Source: a virus (lineage: Duplodnaviria > Caudoviricetes). From it: a stretch of DNA of 64,000 bases. How positions within the stretch are numbered: position 1 is the stretch's first letter; each line of letters opens with the position of its first letter. A model generated the notes under the pieces. The model worked only from the letters and a program-made list of their open reading frames with translations, was not told the DNA's origin and made no database searches. Below, one piece after another: positions 9,359 through 18,827 of this stretch. The position numbers and the translations under genes are program-made. Where the stretch lies: IMG/VR virus record IMGVR_UViG_3300011008_000999. One strand, given 5' to 3'.

Positions 9359-9708
9359 TCTCCGCAGCAGCCATAATCAACATTTTCATTCATAAGATCA
9401 AGACAATCTAATACAACTTGATGTGGATCGTCAACAATATCAGTTAGTGCTTTATATACATCGTCAACATGATATTTATTGAGTACCCAAGGTAATGTTT
9501 GTACATCACCAGTATCTGTATTATAGTAACCACCGGAAGACCAAAATCTAGGAAAATCACAACTATTCTTAGAACCAAATTTCCAAGTGTTACCATCTAT
9601 CATTACAGTAAGAGTACCATCACAGTACATCAAACCTTCTTCGTATTTTATGAATTGAATATTCATCTCTTTTCTGCCTTTGCAATCTGAGGAATTATCA
9701 TATTTCAT
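9349..9708 (-). CDS. hypothetical phage protein (C-terminal GCCGEC)
   Basis: FWSSGG...NENVDYGCCGECL. Confidence 0.6.
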   Translation of the reverse strand: MKYDNSSDCKGRKEMNIQFIKYEEGLMYCDGTLTVMIDGNTWKFGSKNSCDFPRFWSSGGYYNTDTGDVQTLPWVLNKYHVDDVYKALTDIVDDPHQVVLDCLDLMNENVDYGCCGECL

Positions 9709-10408
9709 AATATTTCCAATGTAAATTATTAGTTTTATTACGTGTACCTAAACAACATTCACTTATTTTAGAACTATTGCTATTAGTTTCTTTTGCTGCT
9801 TGTGTTATAGAATCATATACTATTCCAGTATCTATACATATAACTTTATGTCGTTTCTTGACTGCAGCAGCTTCAATTCGTTTTTTATGAATAATTTTCA
9901 TTTCATCTGGATGTTCTTTTTGCCAATTTAAACAATCCTTAACTTTCTCCTTTGACCATTCTGGATTATTTTTCATTTTAATCTTCATAGCATTTGTAGC
10001 ATTCGGAGAAATTATTTTTATTCCACGTGTAAATTTATTATATTCTGGTTTTAAAGTCTTAATATAATGTTCTTCTATATTTTTAGCTTCACTAATAGTA
10101 CAGGTAGCTTTAGATAGTTCAATATGAGTAAAACAATTTTCTCCATATTTTTCAATGTCTCGAGAAAGTTCTAAATTAAATCCGTACCCTTTTCCATTTT
10201 TCCATCTAGCTTCAATAGATTTTTGAGTAGTAGCTCCAACATACCGTTTATTATTAACTGTACATGTGTGCGTATAAAATATAAAATCATATTTATTAGT
10301 ATCTTCATCAGATTTTAATATAGGTTTTTCATTATGTATATGCACTAAATGTCTATTTAATGAAGTTCTACAAGAAAAACATTTATTACAAATCAAACAT
10401 TTTTCCAC
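9698..10408 (-). CDS. GIY-YIG homing endonuclease with N-terminal C2H2 finger and C-terminal NUMOD1
   Basis: CLIC..F.....LNRHLVHIH; FIFY...KRYVGAT...RW; VICIDTGIVYDSITQAA...HWKY. Confidence 0.85.
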   Translation of the reverse strand: MEKCLICNKCFSCRTSLNRHLVHIHNEKPILKSDEDTNKYDFIFYTHTCTVNNKRYVGATTQKSIEARWKNGKGYGFNLELSRDIEKYGENCFTHIELSKATCTISEAKNIEEHYIKTLKPEYNKFTRGIKIISPNATNAMKIKMKNNPEWSKEKVKDCLNWQKEHPDEMKIIHKKRIEAAAVKKRHKVICIDTGIVYDSITQAAKETNSNSSKISECCLGTRNKTNNLHWKYYEI

Positions 10409-11502
10409 TAGTTATTCCTTTCAGCTTTTATTACCTGTGGTATAATACAATTAGCTTTTATTACCCAAATCTTCTGACCAATAAATGGTTTCTCACCAAG
10501 GAGTTCTTTCATAATAGAAATATTATGCATTGATGCATTCTGAACAGTAGTACCATCAATAATTACTGGTTTGAAAGTAGCTACAGGTGTAATAGCACCA
10601 GTACGTCCAACTGACCAAGTAATTCCAGTAAGTTCAGTTTCAAACAGTTCATCATAGAACTTGAATGCAAAACCACCGCGGAATGAATGTTCATCATGAC
10701 CTTTTGCCATGTAAGAAGCATAATCATTGATCTTATATACAAGACCATCAATAGGATATTTCTTAGCGGCTGCTTTCTGTCTCATTCTTTCCTGTTGAGC
10801 TTCAAGATTCTCAGTATTAGTATATTCCCAATCAACTACTACAAACTTGAGATCTGCAAGTTTCTGAAGCTTAACATCAAGATCATCTTCACCTGTGATC
10901 ATATCCCATGCAACAAATGTAAGCATTCTTCTCTCGCATTCATCAGGATTATCAAGTCGAATAGATCCAGATGCAAAGTTTCTAGGATTCTTAAACATCG
11001 AGCTGAACTCTTCAAAGTCATCATACTTACAAATAACTTCACCATCTATAACGATTGTATCTTTAACGGAAATTGTCTTAGGAATCGAAGGAAGTCTCTT
11101 TGCATTTTCAGTGATGTCTTCACCAACTTTACCATTTCCACGAGTTTCAGCAGAAACAAGCTTTCCATTCTCATACTTAAGAGAACAGGTAAGGCCATCC
11201 ATCTTCAACATAGTAATTGACTTTTCCTTCAACCACTTCTTAAGAACGTTATTATCTTTGGTTTTATCAAGAGAGAGCATCAGATGGTTATGAGTAACCT
11301 TCTTAAGAGAGTTCTGAATATCAAACTGAATTGTTGCTGAAGGAGACTTAGGATCAATATAACCAGTCTCTTCCTCATAAGCACAACACTCAAAGTAAAG
11401 AGCGTCCCAAGCTTCATCACTAATCTCAGGATTTCCTTCATCATACCTCTTAGTGTAATAATTCAGCTTCTCAATATTCTGAGTATATTCTTCTCTCGTC
11501 AT
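10408..11502 (-). CDS. ligA: NAD-dependent DNA ligase, N-terminal half (adenylation domain and OB fold)
   Basis: ISDEAWD, MLSLDK, KMDG, TRGNG, NPRN, DGLVYK, VGRTG, NASMHN, IIPQV; start placed at 11502 by RBS. Confidence 0.95.
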   Translation of the reverse strand: MTREEYTQNIEKLNYYTKRYDEGNPEISDEAWDALYFECCAYEEETGYIDPKSPSATIQFDIQNSLKKVTHNHLMLSLDKTKDNNVLKKWLKEKSITMLKMDGLTCSLKYENGKLVSAETRGNGKVGEDITENAKRLPSIPKTISVKDTIVIDGEVICKYDDFEEFSSMFKNPRNFASGSIRLDNPDECERRMLTFVAWDMITGEDDLDVKLQKLADLKFVVVDWEYTNTENLEAQQERMRQKAAAKKYPIDGLVYKINDYASYMAKGHDEHSFRGGFAFKFYDELFETELTGITWSVGRTGAITPVATFKPVIIDGTTVQNASMHNISIMKELLGEKPFIGQKIWVIKANCIIPQVIKAERNN

Positions 11503-11541
11503 TGTAAAACCTCCGTACAAGTTATTATTTATTATAGTATT

Positions 11542-12779: not shown

Positions 12780-13319
12780 TTAATTATTATATAACTCGGA
12801 TAATTTGCTCCAGTAATCATTAATTCTAACCATTAACTCATCCTGGATCTGAAGCCATTCATCTTTAGCTGTATTGAATTTGATCTCTCTACGATCATAT
12901 AAAAGTGCTTCAATTGAATCAGCTAAATTTACAATAAGTTTAGCGGTTTCATCATCTTCACATTTTTCCATAGTATCGTAGAAAGCAGGAACAGTCTGCA
13001 TAGCAAGCTTTTCTTGTTTCTTAACAATAGCTTTAAGTTCTGGATTCTTTTCCTTAACCATGTAGTTAACATCACCAAGTGATTCCTCAGTAGATTCTAC
13101 ATAGTCATGGCAACATCCATAACTAAGAGCCTTTAATGCTATATGATCAGGAATATGAAATAGATTTATAAGAATAACTATAATCTGAGTAACATATAAC
13201 TGATGTTCAGCATCATTTTCCTCAAACATAAAATCTCTTAACTGCCAACGCTTTACACGTGACTGTCTATAGAGTTTTAATGATTCAAGGTAAGTTACAA
13301 ATTCATTTATATTTTTCAT
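12780..13319 (-). CDS. HD-domain deoxynucleotide phosphohydrolase (YfbR-like)
   Basis: VKRW, ENDAEH, CHDYVE, GDV, ADSIE. Confidence 0.8.
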   Translation of the reverse strand: MKNINEFVTYLESLKLYRQSRVKRWQLRDFMFEENDAEHQLYVTQIIVILINLFHIPDHIALKALSYGCCHDYVESTEESLGDVNYMVKEKNPELKAIVKKQEKLAMQTVPAFYDTMEKCEDDETAKLIVNLADSIEALLYDRREIKFNTAKDEWLQIQDELMVRINDYWSKLSELYNN

Positions 13320-13330
13320 TTATGTTTCCT

Positions 13331-13870
13331 TTACTCGATCATACCATTATATGCAACCTTAGTACCTTTTTCAATCCACTCAGGAAGCTTATCGAGACGA
13401 TCAAATGCTTTTTCTACAAGAGTATCACCATCATAGATATCAGTGATAGTAATATCTGCAGACTGTGAAAGCATAAGATTGAATGATGCTTTACCTAAAG
13501 TCTCTGCATAATAGACCATAATAGGTTTCTTACCAGATAAGCGTCTTGCATGATATGCATATCCAACTTCTACCATTGTACCAGCATCAATTGCCTGCAT
13601 AGGCTGACCTTCCTTATCAGGTTCAGTACAAGTACCACGCTTACCATCAGTAACTGCAAAAAGAATATCTGCATCATCTATATTTACAATATTACCTTCA
13701 AATGTAGCCTTCTGAACTGCAGGATCTGCAAATGAACCAGTAATATTAGAACTCTCTCTAGGTGAAAATACCTCGAATCCAAGTTCTCTAAGACGATTAA
13801 TAAGTCTCTTTTCTCTTTCTGCTTGTGCAGCAGTAAACCAAGGTGATGCAAAATAAATTTTCTTTGCCAT
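13331..13870 (-). CDS. nucleoside 2-deoxyribosyltransferase / nucleotide N-glycosidase family
   Basis: KIYFASPWF, DAGTMVEVGYA, FNLML. Confidence 0.88.
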   Translation of the reverse strand: MAKKIYFASPWFTAAQAEREKRLINRLRELGFEVFSPRESSNITGSFADPAVQKATFEGNIVNIDDADILFAVTDGKRGTCTEPDKEGQPMQAIDAGTMVEVGYAYHARRLSGKKPIMVYYAETLGKASFNLMLSQSADITITDIYDGDTLVEKAFDRLDKLPEWIEKGTKVAYNGMIE

Positions 13871-13909
13871 TGTCTAATTTCCTTTCATTTTTTTTTCGTG
13901 CTTTGGTTT

Positions 13910-14797
13910 TTAGATACCTTCAATAACACCGTTCTTAATCATATACTCATATACTTCAGGTTTTCTACCTCTAGTAGCATTATGTAAATATGCATACTTC
14001 TTAAGAGTATTATGATAATTAGGCGCAAATTTCTCAGGAGCAGAAAGAATTAAGTGTACGTATTTTCTCAACTCCTTATTAGATCTGTTTATAAAATAGA
14101 AAGTCTCAAACTTCTCATCAAGTCCCCAAGAAGTATGAACACGTCTATTTGTCCAGAACTCATATAAAACTTCGCTCTCATAAAAAGCTTTCATCATCTT
14201 TTCATAATCTGCAATGTCTTCTTCTGCAGCAACAATTAACTTATTACCTGCAGATTCATAGTTCTTAAGATACTTATTAGTCCAAAAGCTCTCAGTAAGC
14301 TTATAACCAAATATCTTACAAAATTCACGATAATATCTCTTAGCATTATCAGAAAGATCAGATACATGTGAAGGACCTGCAGATAATCTAATATGCATAA
14401 ACATATTATGATCTGATTCAAATACCTTACTGAATCCATCTCTAAAGATAACATCTTCATCAGATACAAACATCTTATCTAACTTAAGATACTTAATACC
14501 ATACCAGTGCGCTAAGTTCTTAGTAGACATACAATACTCTTCAACAAAAGAATTATCAATAACGTCCTTCTTGAACTTATCAACAATCTTGCGACTAGTA
14601 AGAATAGATGCTTTCTTAACTCTTTCAGAAATATTATACTTATCGTAAATCTTCTGTATTTCGTCAGTCTTATCGCCAATTCTAGTCTCATTAATGGCGA
14701 TAAACTGAATATCTTTCAAATCTGTTTTAGGCAGGTTCTTAACTAACAACTCGAAAAAATACATATTGTTAGCTAAAACCATTATTGCATTCTTCAT
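13910..14797 (-). CDS. putative GT-A fold glycosyltransferase-like protein
   Basis: FVSDEDVIF DxD motif after a beta strand, later DEK and YLH motifs. Confidence 0.5.
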   Translation of the reverse strand: MKNAIMVLANNMYFFELLVKNLPKTDLKDIQFIAINETRIGDKTDEIQKIYDKYNISERVKKASILTSRKIVDKFKKDVIDNSFVEEYCMSTKNLAHWYGIKYLKLDKMFVSDEDVIFRDGFSKVFESDHNMFMHIRLSAGPSHVSDLSDNAKRYYREFCKIFGYKLTESFWTNKYLKNYESAGNKLIVAAEEDIADYEKMMKAFYESEVLYEFWTNRRVHTSWGLDEKFETFYFINRSNKELRKYVHLILSAPEKFAPNYHNTLKKYAYLHNATRGRKPEVYEYMIKNGVIEGI

Positions 14798-14822
14798 CTA
14801 AGTTTCTCCTATTTTATTCATA

Positions 14823-14853
14823 TAGGAGACATCTAAATGAATAGATGTCTCCT
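14823..14853. terminator. strong hairpin between the thyX-like and GT-like genes
   Basis: AGGAGACATCTA...TAGATGTCTCCT. Confidence 0.6.
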
Positions 14854-14862
14854 TATAATTGC

Positions 14863-15831
14863 TTATCTATTGTAATAAGGCATGTTCTTAATTCTCTGTC
14901 TTGCAACAAGAGGATCATTAGGATCGTAATCAGCAGGAAGTTCCTTTCCTTCAGCTTCAAGCTTAAGCCAATTCTCAATCATTTCCTTCTCACCAGGAAG
15001 AAGAAGTTCAGGTCTCTCATGATACATCTTCTCAAGCTCGATCTTCCAAGAAGAAGTTCTCCAATCATTGTGTGCCTTTTCTCCGAAGTCGTATCCTTCA
15101 GGAGTAGGATAACGTGAGAAGTCATTGTTGTATGTATGGTCTCTCTTATAGAACTGCTTTCTATCAGAGAACTGAAGCAACCAAGTCCAAAGTTTCTTAG
15201 AAAGAGGATCAGTAAGCTCATCAATTGCTTTAACAAGCTCGTATCTCATAAGTCTGTAAATGTAGTTAATCTCATCCGCGAAGTTATTCTCAGTTCTTGC
15301 ATTACATGAGTTCATCCACTGCATTACATCAGCGGTATAGCAAAGAGAGATTGTCTGTGCATGGAAACCAAAGTATCTAGCATCCATATAAGATACTCCA
15401 CCTTCGCACATATCAATGTAAAGATCTTCAATATCTCTCTCAATCTTCTCAAGACGATCCATCCAATCCTTATTCTTATAAATGAATGCAGGAGTAATGA
15501 AGTCCTGAGTAAGAGGTCTTGTATCACCAGACTGTGAACAGAAGAATCCCTTCTCTCTAGTAAGCTGCGCAAGACATACGCGAGAAATGTTGTTTACCTG
15601 GAATGAAAGCTTAGAACCTTCAAATGCAAACTTTGCAAATGTCTTTCCGTTGATGATCTCATCAACTACTTTCTGGAAATGTGGATGATCAGGACTATAC
15701 TCGATATCCTCTGCACCTTCGTAAAACTCACCAAGCTTACCAAAAGAAGTAACCGCTTTAGCAAGATCGTTACCTTTCCAGTCAATGAGCTTTACATTGA
15801 TGTTCTCATAACCATTTCTAAATGTTCCCAT
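14863..15831 (-). CDS. divergent ThyX (flavin-dependent thymidylate synthase)-like protein
   Basis: FE...SF...ISRVCLAQLTREK..CSQSGDTR, YIDM...G....DARY, AR; the RHR and S-x-RY signature is altered. Confidence 0.75.
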   Translation of the reverse strand: MGTFRNGYENINVKLIDWKGNDLAKAVTSFGKLGEFYEGAEDIEYSPDHPHFQKVVDEIINGKTFAKFAFEGSKLSFQVNNISRVCLAQLTREKGFFCSQSGDTRPLTQDFITPAFIYKNKDWMDRLEKIERDIEDLYIDMCEGGVSYMDARYFGFHAQTISLCYTADVMQWMNSCNARTENNFADEINYIYRLMRYELVKAIDELTDPLSKKLWTWLLQFSDRKQFYKRDHTYNNDFSRYPTPEGYDFGEKAHNDWRTSSWKIELEKMYHERPELLLPGEKEMIENWLKLEAEGKELPADYDPNDPLVARQRIKNMPYYNR

Positions 15832-15911
15832 AATTTTGTAATTTCCTTTCTAAAATTAGTCTTTTAGTTACATTTTGCATTTTATAATAATAAATAGCCC
15901 TTAAACTATTA

Positions 15912-16940
15912 TTATTTCTTACTGATCTTTACGAACTTTACTTTATCAAACTCATTGATCTTAGAGATCTTACCTGAGTCATTGTACAAGTAAATAACGT
16001 AATAGTTACCATCGTCTCCAATAAGGAAGTCATAGTAATACACCGGAGTTCCATCATAAACCTGACGATACTTATATCTGATATAAGTCATATAATCACC
16101 TAACATCTCGAAATTAGGTAATTCATCATCAAGTTCTTCTGACTTATAGTCATCTGATACATTAATACCAACAGAATTATGATATGTAGGAAAACCTAAA
16201 CATGTTTTATCAAAAATTCTATTTGCATCATAAACCATAGGTTCTACTGCTTTATTATTAACAGTAATAGGTGAGAAGTCAGAATCTGCAGGTACTACAA
16301 AGTTCTTAACAATATCTGTCATCTCATCTACATGACGCTCACATTCAGGTTTAAGAATAACAATATCAGCATAGTGTGCTGCAAAGCTAATCATATAAGG
16401 CATAGAAAAATCTGCAAGATTTCTAACAGCTTTATACTTACCACCAAACACACCGTATGAAATAATCTTAATACCTTTTTCCTTACAATACTTTACAGTA
16501 TCAAGATCTACATAATAAGGATTGATTTCAATCTCATTGTATGCAGGATAGAAACCAGTAATAGACTTATATTCTTCAATATCAGCTGCAGTAAAGTTAC
16601 TAACACCTTTCTCAATAAATCTATCATCAGTTGCCATCAACTTAGCAACCTTCTGCCAATTACCACGGTTACTATGAATAAGCATAATATCGATCTTATC
16701 TGTATTCAAACACTTAAGATGATTTGATACGAAAAATTCATAGTTATCTCCATGATATGATGAGATCTTACTAATCAACTTATATCTCTTTCTTATGTCT
16801 TTAAGAAGATAGTCGTTGTTATAGTCAATTGCTGTATCTACAAACTTACAAATCTCAATCATCTTATTCATAATCATAGATTGTTCAGATTTAGTCTGTA
16901 AATGCAATTCCCAAGTACCAACTGCAATTTCATTACTCAT
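15912..16940 (-). CDS. aldo-keto reductase family protein
   Basis: GTW, DTAIDY, ISKI, IDIMLIH, GVSNF, NEIEINPY. Confidence 0.85.
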   Translation of the reverse strand: MSNEIAVGTWELHLQTKSEQSMIMNKMIEICKFVDTAIDYNNDYLLKDIRKRYKLISKISSYHGDNYEFFVSNHLKCLNTDKIDIMLIHSNRGNWQKVAKLMATDDRFIEKGVSNFTAADIEEYKSITGFYPAYNEIEINPYYVDLDTVKYCKEKGIKIISYGVFGGKYKAVRNLADFSMPYMISFAAHYADIVILKPECERHVDEMTDIVKNFVVPADSDFSPITVNNKAVEPMVYDANRIFDKTCLGFPTYHNSVGINVSDDYKSEELDDELPNFEMLGDYMTYIRYKYRQVYDGTPVYYYDFLIGDDGNYYVIYLYNDSGKISKINEFDKVKFVKISKK

Positions 16941-17459
16941 TTATTTACTTTCCTCCGGTTTGAACTCATAGAAGACATCTTCATTTTTAAGATCATCTTC
17001 ATTATAAAAGCCTAAAGGTTTAATTACAACAGGTTCTGTCATAAGATAATCTTCAGCTTTAGTAGTTTTAAGATACTCATTTACTTCCGTTGCGATCTGC
17101 ATAGGAGTCTTTTCAGACGTGTTGAATTTAAGAACTGTAATACCAAGTTTCTCAAATTCTTCAATATATCTATAGTAAGCTTCTCGATCTTTATTGATGT
17201 TAATCTTAGGTTCATGACTAATTGCACAACGAATCTGATGATCGTCATTAGATACATCAAGAAAAACAACAAGAGGTTTATAAAGCATTACGTAATCATG
17301 ATTTCTATGGAACTTATCATTATATACTACCTGTGTCAATGCACCACGACAGTTAACTGCGTATGCATAATTAGTGATAGTAGTAATGTAAGGCCCAATA
17401 GTATCTTTACCTGCTTTATCTACCCCTTCAATTTCAATCGCAATATTATTGATTGTCAT
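16941..17459 (-). CDS. P-loop nucleotide (dTMP kinase-like) kinase
   Basis: IEIEGVDKAGKDT. Confidence 0.7.
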   Translation of the reverse strand: MTINNIAIEIEGVDKAGKDTIGPYITTITNYAYAVNCRGALTQVVYNDKFHRNHDYVMLYKPLVVFLDVSNDDHQIRCAISHEPKININKDREAYYRYIEEFEKLGITVLKFNTSEKTPMQIATEVNEYLKTTKAEDYLMTEPVVIKPLGFYNEDDLKNEDVFYEFKPEESK

Positions 17460-17476
17460 TTATTAAATATCCTTTC

Positions 17477-17977
17477 TTAAATATTTACACCTTTACTTCT
17501 AAGCCATTCATCAAGCTTTTCATAAGCATTAGGTTCAGCTATATCAATTACATAATATCTGTCATAGTTGAACTGTTTGAAATATTCTGCATATAACTTA
17601 AATAGCTCATTCTGATAATTAATTTCTTTTAGATAGTCATATTCACCTCTAGCAATAAGACGTTCATTAAGAATATCCATATTTGAAGTCAAAAAGATAA
17701 CAAAGAACGTATCTGTAGCGATAAGTTCTTCAGTTATCTTCTTAAACTCTTGATAAGTCAACTTAAAAGGTCGACCATAAATCTGTGGAAAAATATACTC
17801 GCTTAAGTGAAAGCGGTCAAAGATTTGATTATCTTTATTTAATAAATCAAGATAATACGGAAGATCGTTAGGTGTTTTAGCTGTTCCATGAATAGTATCA
17901 AGTTCATAATTAGCTAAGATCTTTTCTGCTAATGTAGTTTTACCTGTTGCATCAGGTCCTTCAATAATAATATTCAT
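17477..17977 (-). CDS. P-loop dNMP (thymidylate-kinase-like) kinase
   Basis: IIIEGPDATGKTT, FDRFHLSEY, RLIARGE. Confidence 0.8.
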   Translation of the reverse strand: MNIIIEGPDATGKTTLAEKILANYELDTIHGTAKTPNDLPYYLDLLNKDNQIFDRFHLSEYIFPQIYGRPFKLTYQEFKKITEELIATDTFFVIFLTSNMDILNERLIARGEYDYLKEINYQNELFKLYAEYFKQFNYDRYYVIDIAEPNAYEKLDEWLRSKGVNI

Positions 17978-18010: not shown

Positions 18011-18044
18011 ATTTTATCACGATCTTCCGTAAATGTAAATAGTT
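18011..18044 (-). promoter_or_regulatory. conserved sigmaA-like promoter driving the nucleotide cluster
   Basis: AACTATTTACA-N17-TAAAAT. Confidence 0.8.
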
Positions 18045-18045
18045 T

Positions 18046-18420
18046 TTAATTGGCAACTTTTTTATATTTTCCAGGATTACGTCTCCACGCACAATATGTT
18101 TCAGTACTGAACCAACAGCAAGTATCATACATCATAACATTTGCATTAGGTATATAAGGTACAGACATTACTGTTTGAACTTCGTAGAACTTAACATTTT
18201 CTGGCTTAATAACATCTTTCTTATCATTAAGATAATTAGTTAAGAACTTATCTGCATCTTCTTTAGATTTGAAATACAATGCAAATCTTAAATCATTCTG
18301 CGATACATCTGTAAAAGTATCATTCTTTGCATTAGCTCCATGTGTAAATCCTAAGAACCAATTGTTCTTCTTATTTGCACGTACAACATACATTGCTGTG
18401 GTTAACTTGATTTCATCCAT
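18046..18420 (-). CDS. hypothetical protein (paralog of the adjacent gene)
   Basis: SQNDLRFALYFKSKEDA...YL. Confidence 0.6.
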   Translation of the reverse strand: MDEIKLTTAMYVVRANKKNNWFLGFTHGANAKNDTFTDVSQNDLRFALYFKSKEDADKFLTNYLNDKKDVIKPENVKFYEVQTVMSVPYIPNANVMMYDTCCWFSTETYCAWRRNPGKYKKVAN

Positions 18421-18422
18421 AA

Positions 18423-18827
18423 TTACTTCTCCTTTTCTGTTAAAGCGTGATAAACATCTGCACTAAGAAGTACAAAATGTTCAAACTCGCCGTATTTAAG
18501 ATACGCACTTCTAAATACACCATTAGAAGCTTTTAGTTTTTCAGTATTCACCATAATGAATTTGTTAGTAAATGGAAATGTTACCATATCATAATCAAAT
18601 TCTACAGGTTCAACTGAAATAAACTTTTCATTACTTTTGAGCATTTTACAGTTCGGGCTGCTTAAATAAGCCTTTATTGCAGAAGCAGCCAGGTCTTCTG
18701 TCTCAAAGAAAAGCGCATAATCAAAATCAGATTGAGCTAATGTTGCAGGTCGCATTTTAATGTTTGCTGCAGACAAATATCTACCTGCTTTTTGATTGAG
18801 CTTTACGCAGTAAAATGTTTTTCTCAA
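18423..18827 (-). CDS. hypothetical protein (paralog of the adjacent gene)
   Basis: AQSDFDYALFFETEDLA...YL; TTG start with AAGGAG RBS. Confidence 0.6.
   Translation of the reverse strand: MRKTFYCVKLNQKAGRYLSAANIKMRPATLAQSDFDYALFFETEDLAASAIKAYLSSPNCKMLKSNEKFISVEPVEFDYDMVTFPFTNKFIMVNTEKLKASNGVFRSAYLKYGEFEHFVLLSADVYHALTEKEK

Follow-up and report, generated by a model that had tools for sequence, protein, structure and literature searches.

A conserved gut-phage gene cassette built around an altered ThyX-fold protein is a candidate route to a modified DNA pyrimidine

What does a phage do with seven consecutive nucleotide-metabolism genes, one of which encodes a ThyX homologue whose signature motif has been rewritten? 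The question is posed by positions 12780–17977 of a 64,000-nucleotide stretch of DNA (hereafter the window), which spans positions 186,971–250,970, on the reverse strand, of the 331,944-bp IMG/VR virus record IMGVR_UViG_3300011008_000999 (here G000). Because the record has direct terminal repeats at its ends, we regard G000 as a complete jumbo phage genome. The original prediction, made from the letters alone, held that the cluster makes a non-canonical pyrimidine nucleotide, and our analysis upholds it in part: a conserved core of genes, the altered ThyX and the recurrence of glycosyltransferases speak for it, while a salvage pathway that would yield no modified base, weighed below, is its main rival. 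We give about an even chance to the view that the seven genes form a phage nucleotide-pool operon making a C5-modified derivative of dUMP, which would be a route to a non-canonical DNA pyrimidine.

All seven predicted open reading frames (ORFs) were found, running head to tail on the minus strand from 17977 to 12780 with gaps of 0 to 80 nt, and searches of Pfam, PHROG and equivalog profiles bore out the families proposed for them. In the direction of the minus strand they encode two thymidylate-kinase-like P-loop kinases (K1 and K2), an aldo-keto reductase (AKR), a ThyX-fold protein (hereafter ThyX-like), a GT-A-like protein with a DxD motif (GT-like), a nucleoside 2-deoxyribosyltransferase-family protein (NDT) and a YfbR/DatZ-like HD phosphohydrolase (HD).

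The answer to our question turns first on ThyX-like (14863–15831, minus strand; 322 aa), the signature gene of the cassette. The protein matched Pfam Thy1 at 6e-11 (42.9 bits against a cut-off of 24.8), and against the ThyX equivalog model TIGR02170 it scored 22.9 bits, short of the cut-off of 87.9. In place of the ThyX motif RHR-x2-S-x4-S-x-R-Y it reads L-T-R-E-K-G-F-F-C-S-Q-S-G-D-T-R-P, so the replacement of RHR...SxRY by R-E-K...S-Q-S-G-D-T-R-P had been read correctly, and it carries a C-terminal extension of ~100 aa. The fold is nonetheless that of ThyX: for an AlphaFold model with a pLDDT of 93, the best 50 of 156 Foldseek matches (E ≤ 0.001) were all ThyX or PolB, with PolB (4p5b, Foldseek E 4e-9) and T. 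maritima ThyX at the top. An exhaustive HMMER search of 1.84 billion representative proteins found 91 relatives, ~25 of them full length. In an alignment of 25 sequences S83, R84, L87, P114, R152, Y153, D186, E187 and N189 were invariant, and T91, R92, S101, D150 and R179 were at least 90% conserved.

We aligned the family profile to M. tuberculosis and H. pylori ThyX, taking residue roles from published work (PMC6514825, PMC11940539). Five of the six dUMP contacts were kept (M. tuberculosis R87, R95, S105, R172 and R199 correspond to R84, R92, S101, R152 and R179 of ThyX-like), the sixth, R107, being lost. Of the five FAD contacts, four (M. tuberculosis H96, R97, S71 and R190) were variable or non-polar in the 25 members, and only the first Arg of RHR (R92) was conserved. 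Thus, when the protein was set against the pockets of ThyX, the nucleotide site stood and the flavin site did not, which makes its designation as a flavoenzyme doubtful. Also lost was the catalytic pair R107/Y108, in which Y108 is the lid and acid Tyr and which corresponds to T. maritima R90/Y91; the T. maritima loop of S88, R90 and Y91 is reported to be critical for ThyX activity, and Y91, with R90, is described as strictly conserved (PMC11940539). The Ser of S-x-R-Y persisted (S101), and the Arg and Tyr were gone at the canonical spacing; the near clade has S-x3-R-P instead, with R105-P106 shifted by three residues, and distant members have lost the motif. Relative to canonical ThyX, Y153, D186, N189 and P114 are newly invariant; E187 is invariant as well but corresponds to a Glu kept in canonical ThyX.

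ThyX active sites are composed from several subunits (PMC6514825). A homodimer model of ThyX-like scored 0.74, compared with 0.00 for the best control, with contacts that agreed at least 88% between runs and a partner pLDDT of at least 84; at the score mark used, 20 of 30 proteins solved as pairs passed, as did 1 of 23 solved as single chains. Because ThyX tetramers have already been solved, this result may reflect likeness to them. The interface predicted by the model comprised S83-R84, L87, R92, P114, D150-Y153 and D186, placing family-invariant residues where a ThyX-type composite site would be expected to have them. Compared with canonical ThyX, therefore, the family has the same fold, the same predicted oligomeric interface and the same dUMP-holding arginines, and it differs in the reduction of RHR to a single R, the replacement or loss of S-x-R-Y, the loss of S71 and R190, and the added C terminus. 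The kept dUMP residues, together with the ThyX fold and the residues lining the predicted interface, make it very probable that ThyX-like still binds a dUMP-type nucleotide. Its residue pattern rules out a canonical thymidylate synthase of the flavin-dependent kind.

G000 has, outside the window, a canonical ThyX of 337 aa (C1:23196–24209, plus strand) with an intact R-H-R-L-A-S-F-A-Q-E-S-T-R-Y, and a search of the genome found no ThyA. Both this second gene and the low equivalog score agree with the earlier view of the cluster's protein as an altered ThyX; by that score it is not a thymidylate-synthase equivalog. The canonical gene is preceded by an ORF with a CheY-like receiver domain (C1:22794–23165). 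A 188-kb relative (G002, the record of locus L005) has, besides its ThyX-like gene, a 307-aa ORF that matches Thy1 very weakly (22.5 bits; C1:84563–85006, minus strand) and may be another divergent ThyX paralogue.

In a set of 50,697 phage records, neither megablast of the cluster DNA nor tblastn of the ThyX-like protein gave a match at E ≤ 1e-5, and tblastn at E ≤ 1 reached only canonical ThyX genes. A profile built from a narrower alignment detected the ThyX-like gene in only two of 185,579 species genomes, both gut metagenome bins, one assigned to Bacilli and one to Clostridia. The family thus belongs essentially to viruses, which probably infect Firmicutes.

If the cluster is a pathway, its genes should travel together. 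We therefore examined 13 further loci with a ThyX-like member, comprising L004–L008 from IMG/VR, L009, L011, L012, L013, L022, L023 and L024 from ENA, JGI and Logan, and the cultured Geobacillus phage GR1 (L016), and called partner genes by tblastn, jackhmmer, Pfam and a K2 profile. Beside the ThyX-like gene we found NDT at 12 of the 13 loci, HD at 11 and a K2-type kinase at 10, and L024 was the only locus that lacked NDT, HD and kinase. The commonest gene order was NDT–HD–ThyX-like–kinase, often with overlapping stop and start codons, and the order was shuffled in jumbo phages. This co-location of homologues in varying order supports the proposal that the cluster is a functional unit. The ThyX-like protein was the best-conserved member, at 61–72% identity compared with 25–38% for NDT, HD and K2. 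Two phages with canonical ThyX (PBC1 and phiCP34O) had none of the cassette neighbours. Carriers range from 45 kb to more than 300 kb and come from ruminant and human gut samples.

Co-occurrence of all seven families, as originally envisaged, was only partly observed: the core that recurs is NDT, HD, ThyX-like and kinase, and AKR (4 loci) and glycosyltransferase (~5 loci) are accessories. Among the loci compared, AKR was found only in the window, L004, L007 and L012; other reductases near the ThyX-like gene were a nitroreductase in GR1 and a short-chain dehydrogenase/reductase (SDR) in L013. Glycosyltransferase genes accompanied or were part of the cassette at several loci: the window (the putative enzyme GT-like), L012 (an orthologue of GT-like, inside the cluster), L008 (with a pair of DXD enzymes) and GR1. 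L009 gave a weak match to T4-alpha-glucosyltransferase-like (TAGT) enzymes, so that the glycosyltransferase proposed as a partner does recur. A 298-aa ORF of L009 was considered as a GT-like homologue and rejected at 14% identity. Some versions of the cassette also include an enzyme that could supply dUMP. In L004 and L009 this is a dUTPase, which in L011 is fused to HD; in L013 and L022 it is a dCMP deaminase, and L022 has a methyltransferase as well. The L011 fusion is a natural 312-aa HD hydrolase–dUTPase protein (L011:1942–2880) encoded directly after the ThyX-like gene, which suggests that both activities serve one pathway.

Of the two kinases, K1 (17477–17977, minus strand; 166 aa) is the nearer to canonical dTMP kinase: it matched Pfam Thymidylate_kin at 2.7e-8 (34.1 bits, cut-off 27), phrog_761 at 1.7e-13 and TIGR00041 at 8e-8, missing the dTMP-kinase equivalog cut-off (32 versus 83 bits). 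K2 (16941–17459, minus strand; 172 aa), the cassette-specific kinase, matched no Pfam or PHROG family. It can be placed among P-loop kinases by a conserved Arg after strand 2 and a Walker A motif of the thymidylate-kinase type, E-G-x-D-x-x-G-K, with G12, D14, G17, K18 and R38 invariant in 10 relatives. K1 and K2 are paralogues, tied by jackhmmer to the same proteins. Orthologues of K2 adjoin the ThyX-like gene in L004–L007, L009, L011–L013, L016 and L022.

NDT (13331–13870, minus strand; 179 aa), a core member, matched Nuc_deoxyrib_tr at 1.4e-17 (64.4 bits, cut-off 28.8) and phrog_7995 at 1.9e-21. Its catalytic-Glu motif, D-A-G-T-M-V-E-V-G-Y-A (of the D-x-G-T-x-x-E-x-G type), aligns with that of the NDT of Bacillus phage SP-15, and its matches among solved structures at E ≤ 0.01 were true nucleoside deoxyribosyltransferases only (6evs and 7m5h best). 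The N terminus reads Y-x-A-x-P-x-F, which we take to be distinct from the phosphate-binding motif of Rcl/DNPH1. On these grounds the enzyme leans to nucleoside substrates, and both the resemblance and the N terminus argue against its proposed role as an N-glycosidase that releases deoxyribose-5-phosphate from dNMPs. HD (12780–13319, minus strand; 179 aa), also core, matched YfbR-like at 5.9e-11 (42.8 bits, cut-off 25.9) and phrog_7076 at 3.4e-18, and has the metal-binding motifs A-E-H and C-H-D of the H...HD...D type. It matched NF003009 at 1.4e-7, below the cut-off, and its PDB matches, DatZ (E 0.02) and YfbR (E 0.55), were weak. HD is the single YfbR/DatZ-like HD gene in G000, and its only match in the phage database was the HD protein of GR1.

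The accessory AKR (15912–16940, minus strand; 342 aa) is divergent, matching Aldo_ket_red at 5.3e-12 over residues 4–167. Pfam and PDB matches, the latter to aldose and diketogluconate reductases, together cover residues 4–185, leaving the C-terminal 160 aa without a match. The tetrad that had been described as intact is so: D35, Y40, K58 and H89, as well as G-V-S-N-F, are invariant in 4 orthologues, with H89 aligned to the L-I-H motif of the AKR family. For the second accessory, the putative glycosyltransferase GT-like (13910–14797, minus strand; 295 aa), no sequence family was matched in Pfam, PHROG or equivalog profiles. Its assignment comes from D113 and D115 of the DxD motif, invariant in five homologues at 43–47% identity, and from Foldseek, in which the N-terminal half matched only GT-A enzymes (TarP, XXYLT1, glycogenin and LgtC; E 3e-5 to 1e-3) at a TM of ~0.3; the model has a pLDDT of 71, with the N-terminal 120 residues well modelled.

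These observations can be arranged into a pathway. dUMP would be supplied by dUTPase or dCMP deaminase, and the ThyX-fold protein would bind such a nucleotide at its subunit interface and, instead of methylating it with FAD and methylene-folate, convert dUMP to a C5-substituted deoxyuridylate. K2 would then phosphorylate the modified nucleotide for the phage polymerase. HD and NDT might act in series, from dNMP to deoxynucleoside to base exchange or removal, so that the competing canonical nucleotide is depleted or recycled. In G000 tailoring could follow, with AKR contributing a reduction step and the GT-A-like protein decorating the base after incorporation, DNA being the presumed acceptor. 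The canonical ThyX and K1 would meanwhile run the ordinary dTMP branch in parallel, in which case thymine replacement would be partial rather than complete.

To our knowledge, all characterised nucleotide-level pyrimidine replacements in phages begin from paralogues of the ThyA fold. T4 and SPO1, for example, use dCMP or dUMP hydroxymethylases of the ThyA type. ThyA paralogues, which include hydroxymethylases and the flavin-dependent 5-hydroxy-dCMP synthase of RB69 and DLP3, yield pyrimidine nucleotides with a hydroxymethyl or 5-hydroxy group, to which sugars are then attached (PMC13326640). In T4, SPO1, RB69 and DLP3 the logic is like that proposed here: a synthase paralogue accompanies the normal enzyme, one kinase is dedicated to the pathway, a hydrolase acts on the competing nucleotide, and glycosyltransferases follow. 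Their enzymes, however, have the unrelated ThyA fold and no NDT or AKR pairing, and their products are known. G000 shares with T4/SPO1/RB69-type replacement the trait of a synthase paralogue, here of ThyX, in addition to the canonical enzyme, and by analogy its layout (canonical ThyX plus ThyX-like, K1 plus K2) matches that of phages running normal and modified pyrimidine branches in parallel. A neofunctionalised ThyX paralogue beside a housekeeping ThyX has a precedent in PolB of polyoxin biosynthesis (PMC5954106). PolB, the best structural match of ThyX-like, is likewise a ThyX paralogue with an altered role, but it continues to methylate UMP and dUMP at C5 with FAD and folate, whereas the ThyX-like family is without the FAD contacts. 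A further precedent is SP-15, a phage with dihydroxypentyluracil in its DNA, which has two Thy1 proteins, the divergent one encoded beside an NDT and a reductase.

What would be new relative to these systems is a phage pyrimidine replacement founded on a thymidylate-synthase paralogue of the ThyX fold, with a real chance of new chemistry. The 8.1 million open papers and 0.36 million preprints searched yielded no account of a cassette of ThyX-like, NDT, HD and kinase, of the ThyX-like subfamily, or of a system combining ThyX-like, AKR and NDT, a combination that had been called undescribed at the outset; the only related remark was a guess by the SP-15 authors about one gene product, gp130. If the proposal is true, a ThyX-fold counterpart with obligatory NDT, HD and kinase would mean that modified DNA evolved along a second path, independent of the first, and probably with a new base. 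Modified bases determine whether a phage resists restriction and CRISPR; they also make sequencing harder and are a source of enzymes for biotechnology. A cassette spread over ruminant and human gut phages could affect how gut viromes are read. A bolder version, to which we allow only a small chance, is that a ThyX-fold enzyme lacking flavin and folate chemistry carries out a new C–C or C–heteroatom substitution at C5 of dUMP, possibly with several carbons from a sugar phosphate or another donor and with a separate NAD(P)H reductase, as a new thymine replacement in gut and rumen Firmicutes phages and in GR1. Should that be so, C5 substitution by a ThyX-based enzyme could also explain the origin of long-chain uracil bases of the SP-15 type.

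The one cultured phage with cassette relatives among the 50,697 records was GR1 (OK896991.1), which also gave the best match to NDT. Between 23.9 and 29.7 kb it has, in one block, homologues of NDT and HD, a P-loop kinase of the K2 family, a 322-aa ThyX-like protein and a glycosyltransferase, and the NAD(P)H oxidoreductase adjoining its ThyX-like gene is a nitroreductase rather than an AKR. The GR1 protein is related to the family of the window with an hhalign probability of 99%, at 23% identity to the family profile, and is the product of the only Thy1 gene in GR1. It scored 69.5 bits against Thy1 and retains RHR, with Cys in place of the second Ser (R-H-R-T-F-S-F-S-A-Q-C-T-G-D-R-W). Because GR1 comes with a type-strain host, it makes the question of a modified base directly testable.

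Several of these observations count against a modified base. With a degraded flavin site and no invariant cysteine in the family, no known mechanism of uracil-C5 activation would appear to apply. Glycosyltransferase and reductase are missing from the flanks of several loci, and the best solved relatives of HD and NDT match weakly. The retained RHR and the 69.5-bit score of the GR1 homologue mean that the ancestral cassette may have held a working thymidylate synthase for dTMP supply. The DNA of G000 itself points the same way: six-base palindromes are depleted, with a median observed/expected ratio of 0.886 compared with 0.999 for other hexamers (p = 2.6e-7), and CATATG, GGATCC, GATATC, CCATGG, TTTAAA and GAATTC occur at 0.25–0.46 of expectation. 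This depletion suggests that restriction enzymes can still act on G000 DNA, as would be the case if it were modified in part or not at all.

Of the alternatives, a salvage pathway survives best, although we consider it unlikely. It would rebalance deoxynucleotides for an AT-rich phage, with HD making deoxynucleosides from surplus host dNMPs, NDT moving the deoxyribose to the bases needed, and the kinase and synthase-like protein feeding dTTP; ThyX-like would be an atypical thymidylate synthase with another cofactor arrangement, or a dUMP-binding accessory, and no modified base would arise. An NDT of the true nucleoside type beside a 5'-deoxynucleotidase-like HD suits this well. So does the absence of any other thymidylate synthase from two carriers, G001 and G004 (86% and 92% complete). 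The low G+C content, 32% for GR1 (GR1 paper) and ~32% for G000, the unshielded DNA suggested by palindrome avoidance and the RHR of GR1 lend further support, and the other enzymes seen with the cassette (dUTPase, dCMP deaminase and a thymidylate-kinase-like kinase) are those that usually accompany dTMP synthesis. Yet a dTMP-making role sits poorly with a protein that lacks the T. maritima-type R90/Y91 pair and four FAD contacts and scores far under the equivalog cut-off, in a phage that already owns a canonical ThyX and a second kinase. It is also odd for a relic or accessory to be the most conserved member of the cassette, and glycosyltransferases are embedded in four independent versions of it. 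Even if no base is modified, the cassette would still be informative, as a means of reallocating deoxyribose that involves a protein derived from ThyX.

There is a slim chance that the product is instead a free base, made in the manner of MilA/MilB and BcmA/BcmB, enzyme pairs that act in the biosynthesis of nucleoside antibiotics: the pyrimidine nucleotide would be modified, HD and NDT would strip phosphate and sugar, and the base would serve as an inhibitor, a signal or an exchange substrate. The biosynthesis of mildiomycin and of bacimethrin does combine thymidylate-synthase-like enzymes with N-glycosidases of the NDT fold, DNPH1 acts on hydroxymethyl-dUMP, and ThyX-like and NDT are nearly always linked. 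A dedicated thymidylate-kinase-like kinase and dUMP-supplying enzymes point, however, to polymerisation; no base-exchange enzyme was seen, and NDT is closer to the transferases than to the hydrolase branch.

Very improbable, in our judgement, is the specific chemistry first put forward for the cluster, taken together with its SP-15-like variant. Here the ThyX-fold enzyme would attach to C5 of uracil a five-carbon unit that originates in deoxyribose phosphate, and the unit would be reduced by AKR, SDR or nitroreductase, giving a dihydroxypentyl-type uracil nucleotide that is then glycosylated. Its appeal comes from SP-15, whose DNA carries 5-(4',5'-dihydroxypentyl)uracil, and the lead was a good one insofar as SP-15 has NDT (gp127), an SDR reductase (gp129) and a divergent Thy1 (gp130) side by side, a canonical ThyX (gp9), and a YfbR-like HD (gp90) elsewhere in its genome. 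It is also in keeping with this chemistry that the window, L004, L007, L012, GR1 and L013 each have an NAD(P)H-type reductase of one family or another close to the ThyX-like gene. But gp130 is not detectably orthologous to the ThyX-like family; with an hhalign probability of 0.7%, and nothing detectable in common beyond the Pfam fold, we rejected a direct relationship, and SP-15 is thus an analogy. SP-15 differs further in that gp130 has 413 aa, its NDT is a two-domain protein of 316 aa, and there is no NDT–HD–ThyX–kinase arrangement. The SP-15 authors guessed that gp130 is a hydroxymethyl-dUMP synthase and placed side-chain synthesis in genes 146–155, not in 127–130. Moreover, an NDT that looks nucleoside-specific would not release deoxyribose-5-phosphate, at least five loci have no reductase, and the chemistry is without precedent.

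Finally, ThyX-like might be catalytically dead, either regulating by binding dUMP/dTMP or interfering with the ThyX of the host as a poison subunit or decoy, with ordinary nucleotide enzymes encoded around it. This would be consistent with the lost flavin contacts and catalytic Tyr and with multi-subunit active sites that could make a mixed oligomer inactive (PMC6514825), but is very unlikely given that the new invariant residues Y153, D186 and N189 cluster with the kept nucleotide-binding arginines at the predicted interface, that the sequence is very highly conserved and the gene tightly coupled in operons with three enzymes, and that the canonical ThyX of G000 would be poisoned too.

A C5-modified dUMP derivative thus remains our preferred product, and G000 may make a second unusual nucleotide as well. 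Outside the window, at C1:108614–109726 on the plus strand, lies a 370-aa ORF of the adenylosuccinate-synthetase family, which matched phrog_1211 (annotated as the 2-aminoadenine enzyme PurZ) at 5.9e-50 and Pfam Adenylsucc_synt with 87 bits over the first 283 of 416 positions; on this basis the phage may make 2-aminoadenine DNA. We considered whether HD could be the DatZ of that pathway, which would account for its place in the cassette, and rejected this explanation because G001, G002 and G004 (79–92% complete) have the cassette without an adenylosuccinate-synthetase homologue. In G000 itself HD may have a double role, in the cassette and in the 2-aminoadenine pathway. Distant from the cluster, G000 also has a second nucleoside 2-deoxyribosyltransferase paralogue (C1:160238–160546, plus strand; 155-aa ORF, Pfam 58 bits).

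The cluster's surroundings assign it to a region of the genome concerned with replication and nucleotide metabolism, its neighbours being an SNF2-type helicase, both topoisomerase II subunits, an NAD-dependent ligase and a replication initiator, and nearly all genes of the window are on the minus strand. Fifteen studies contributed gut metagenomes, from cattle and sheep, in which sampled words of the cluster sequence were found. Metatranscriptome contigs of 168–625 nt from three bovine studies match parts of the HD, NDT, GT-like, ThyX-like and AKR genes at 97–99% identity, some of them spanning gene boundaries within the cluster; since DNA carry-over is possible in metatranscriptomes, they are only a hint of expression. 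The DNA read run X1 yielded cluster-matching fragments of 21–34 nt only.

As to transcription, a single promoter at 18011–18044 had been proposed to precede the seven genes. A sigma-70-like site is indeed present upstream of K1 (18039–18011, minus strand; TTTACA, 17 nt, TAAAAT, with a TG extension), but such sites occur in the AT-rich DNA of this region at the rate expected by chance (36 found, 35 expected), so it is no evidence for one common promoter or for function. The first terminator-like hairpin, a 15-bp stem followed by a T run (12113–12078, minus strand), lies downstream of two further small ORFs, and the transcription unit may thus extend past the seventh gene.

Directly upstream of the cluster, two adjacent minus-strand ORFs of 124 and 134 aa (18046–18420 and 18423–18827) match no family; both match one 117-aa gene of the related jumbo-phage contig L012, and they look like a tandem duplication. 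On the other side, within 9698–11520 (minus strand), the NAD-dependent DNA ligase ORF (370 aa) comprises the adenylation and OB parts only and is abutted by a 236-aa ORF (9698–10408). In L012 the HhH/BRCT part of the ligase is a separate 263-aa gene, and the ligase of the window may thus be split.

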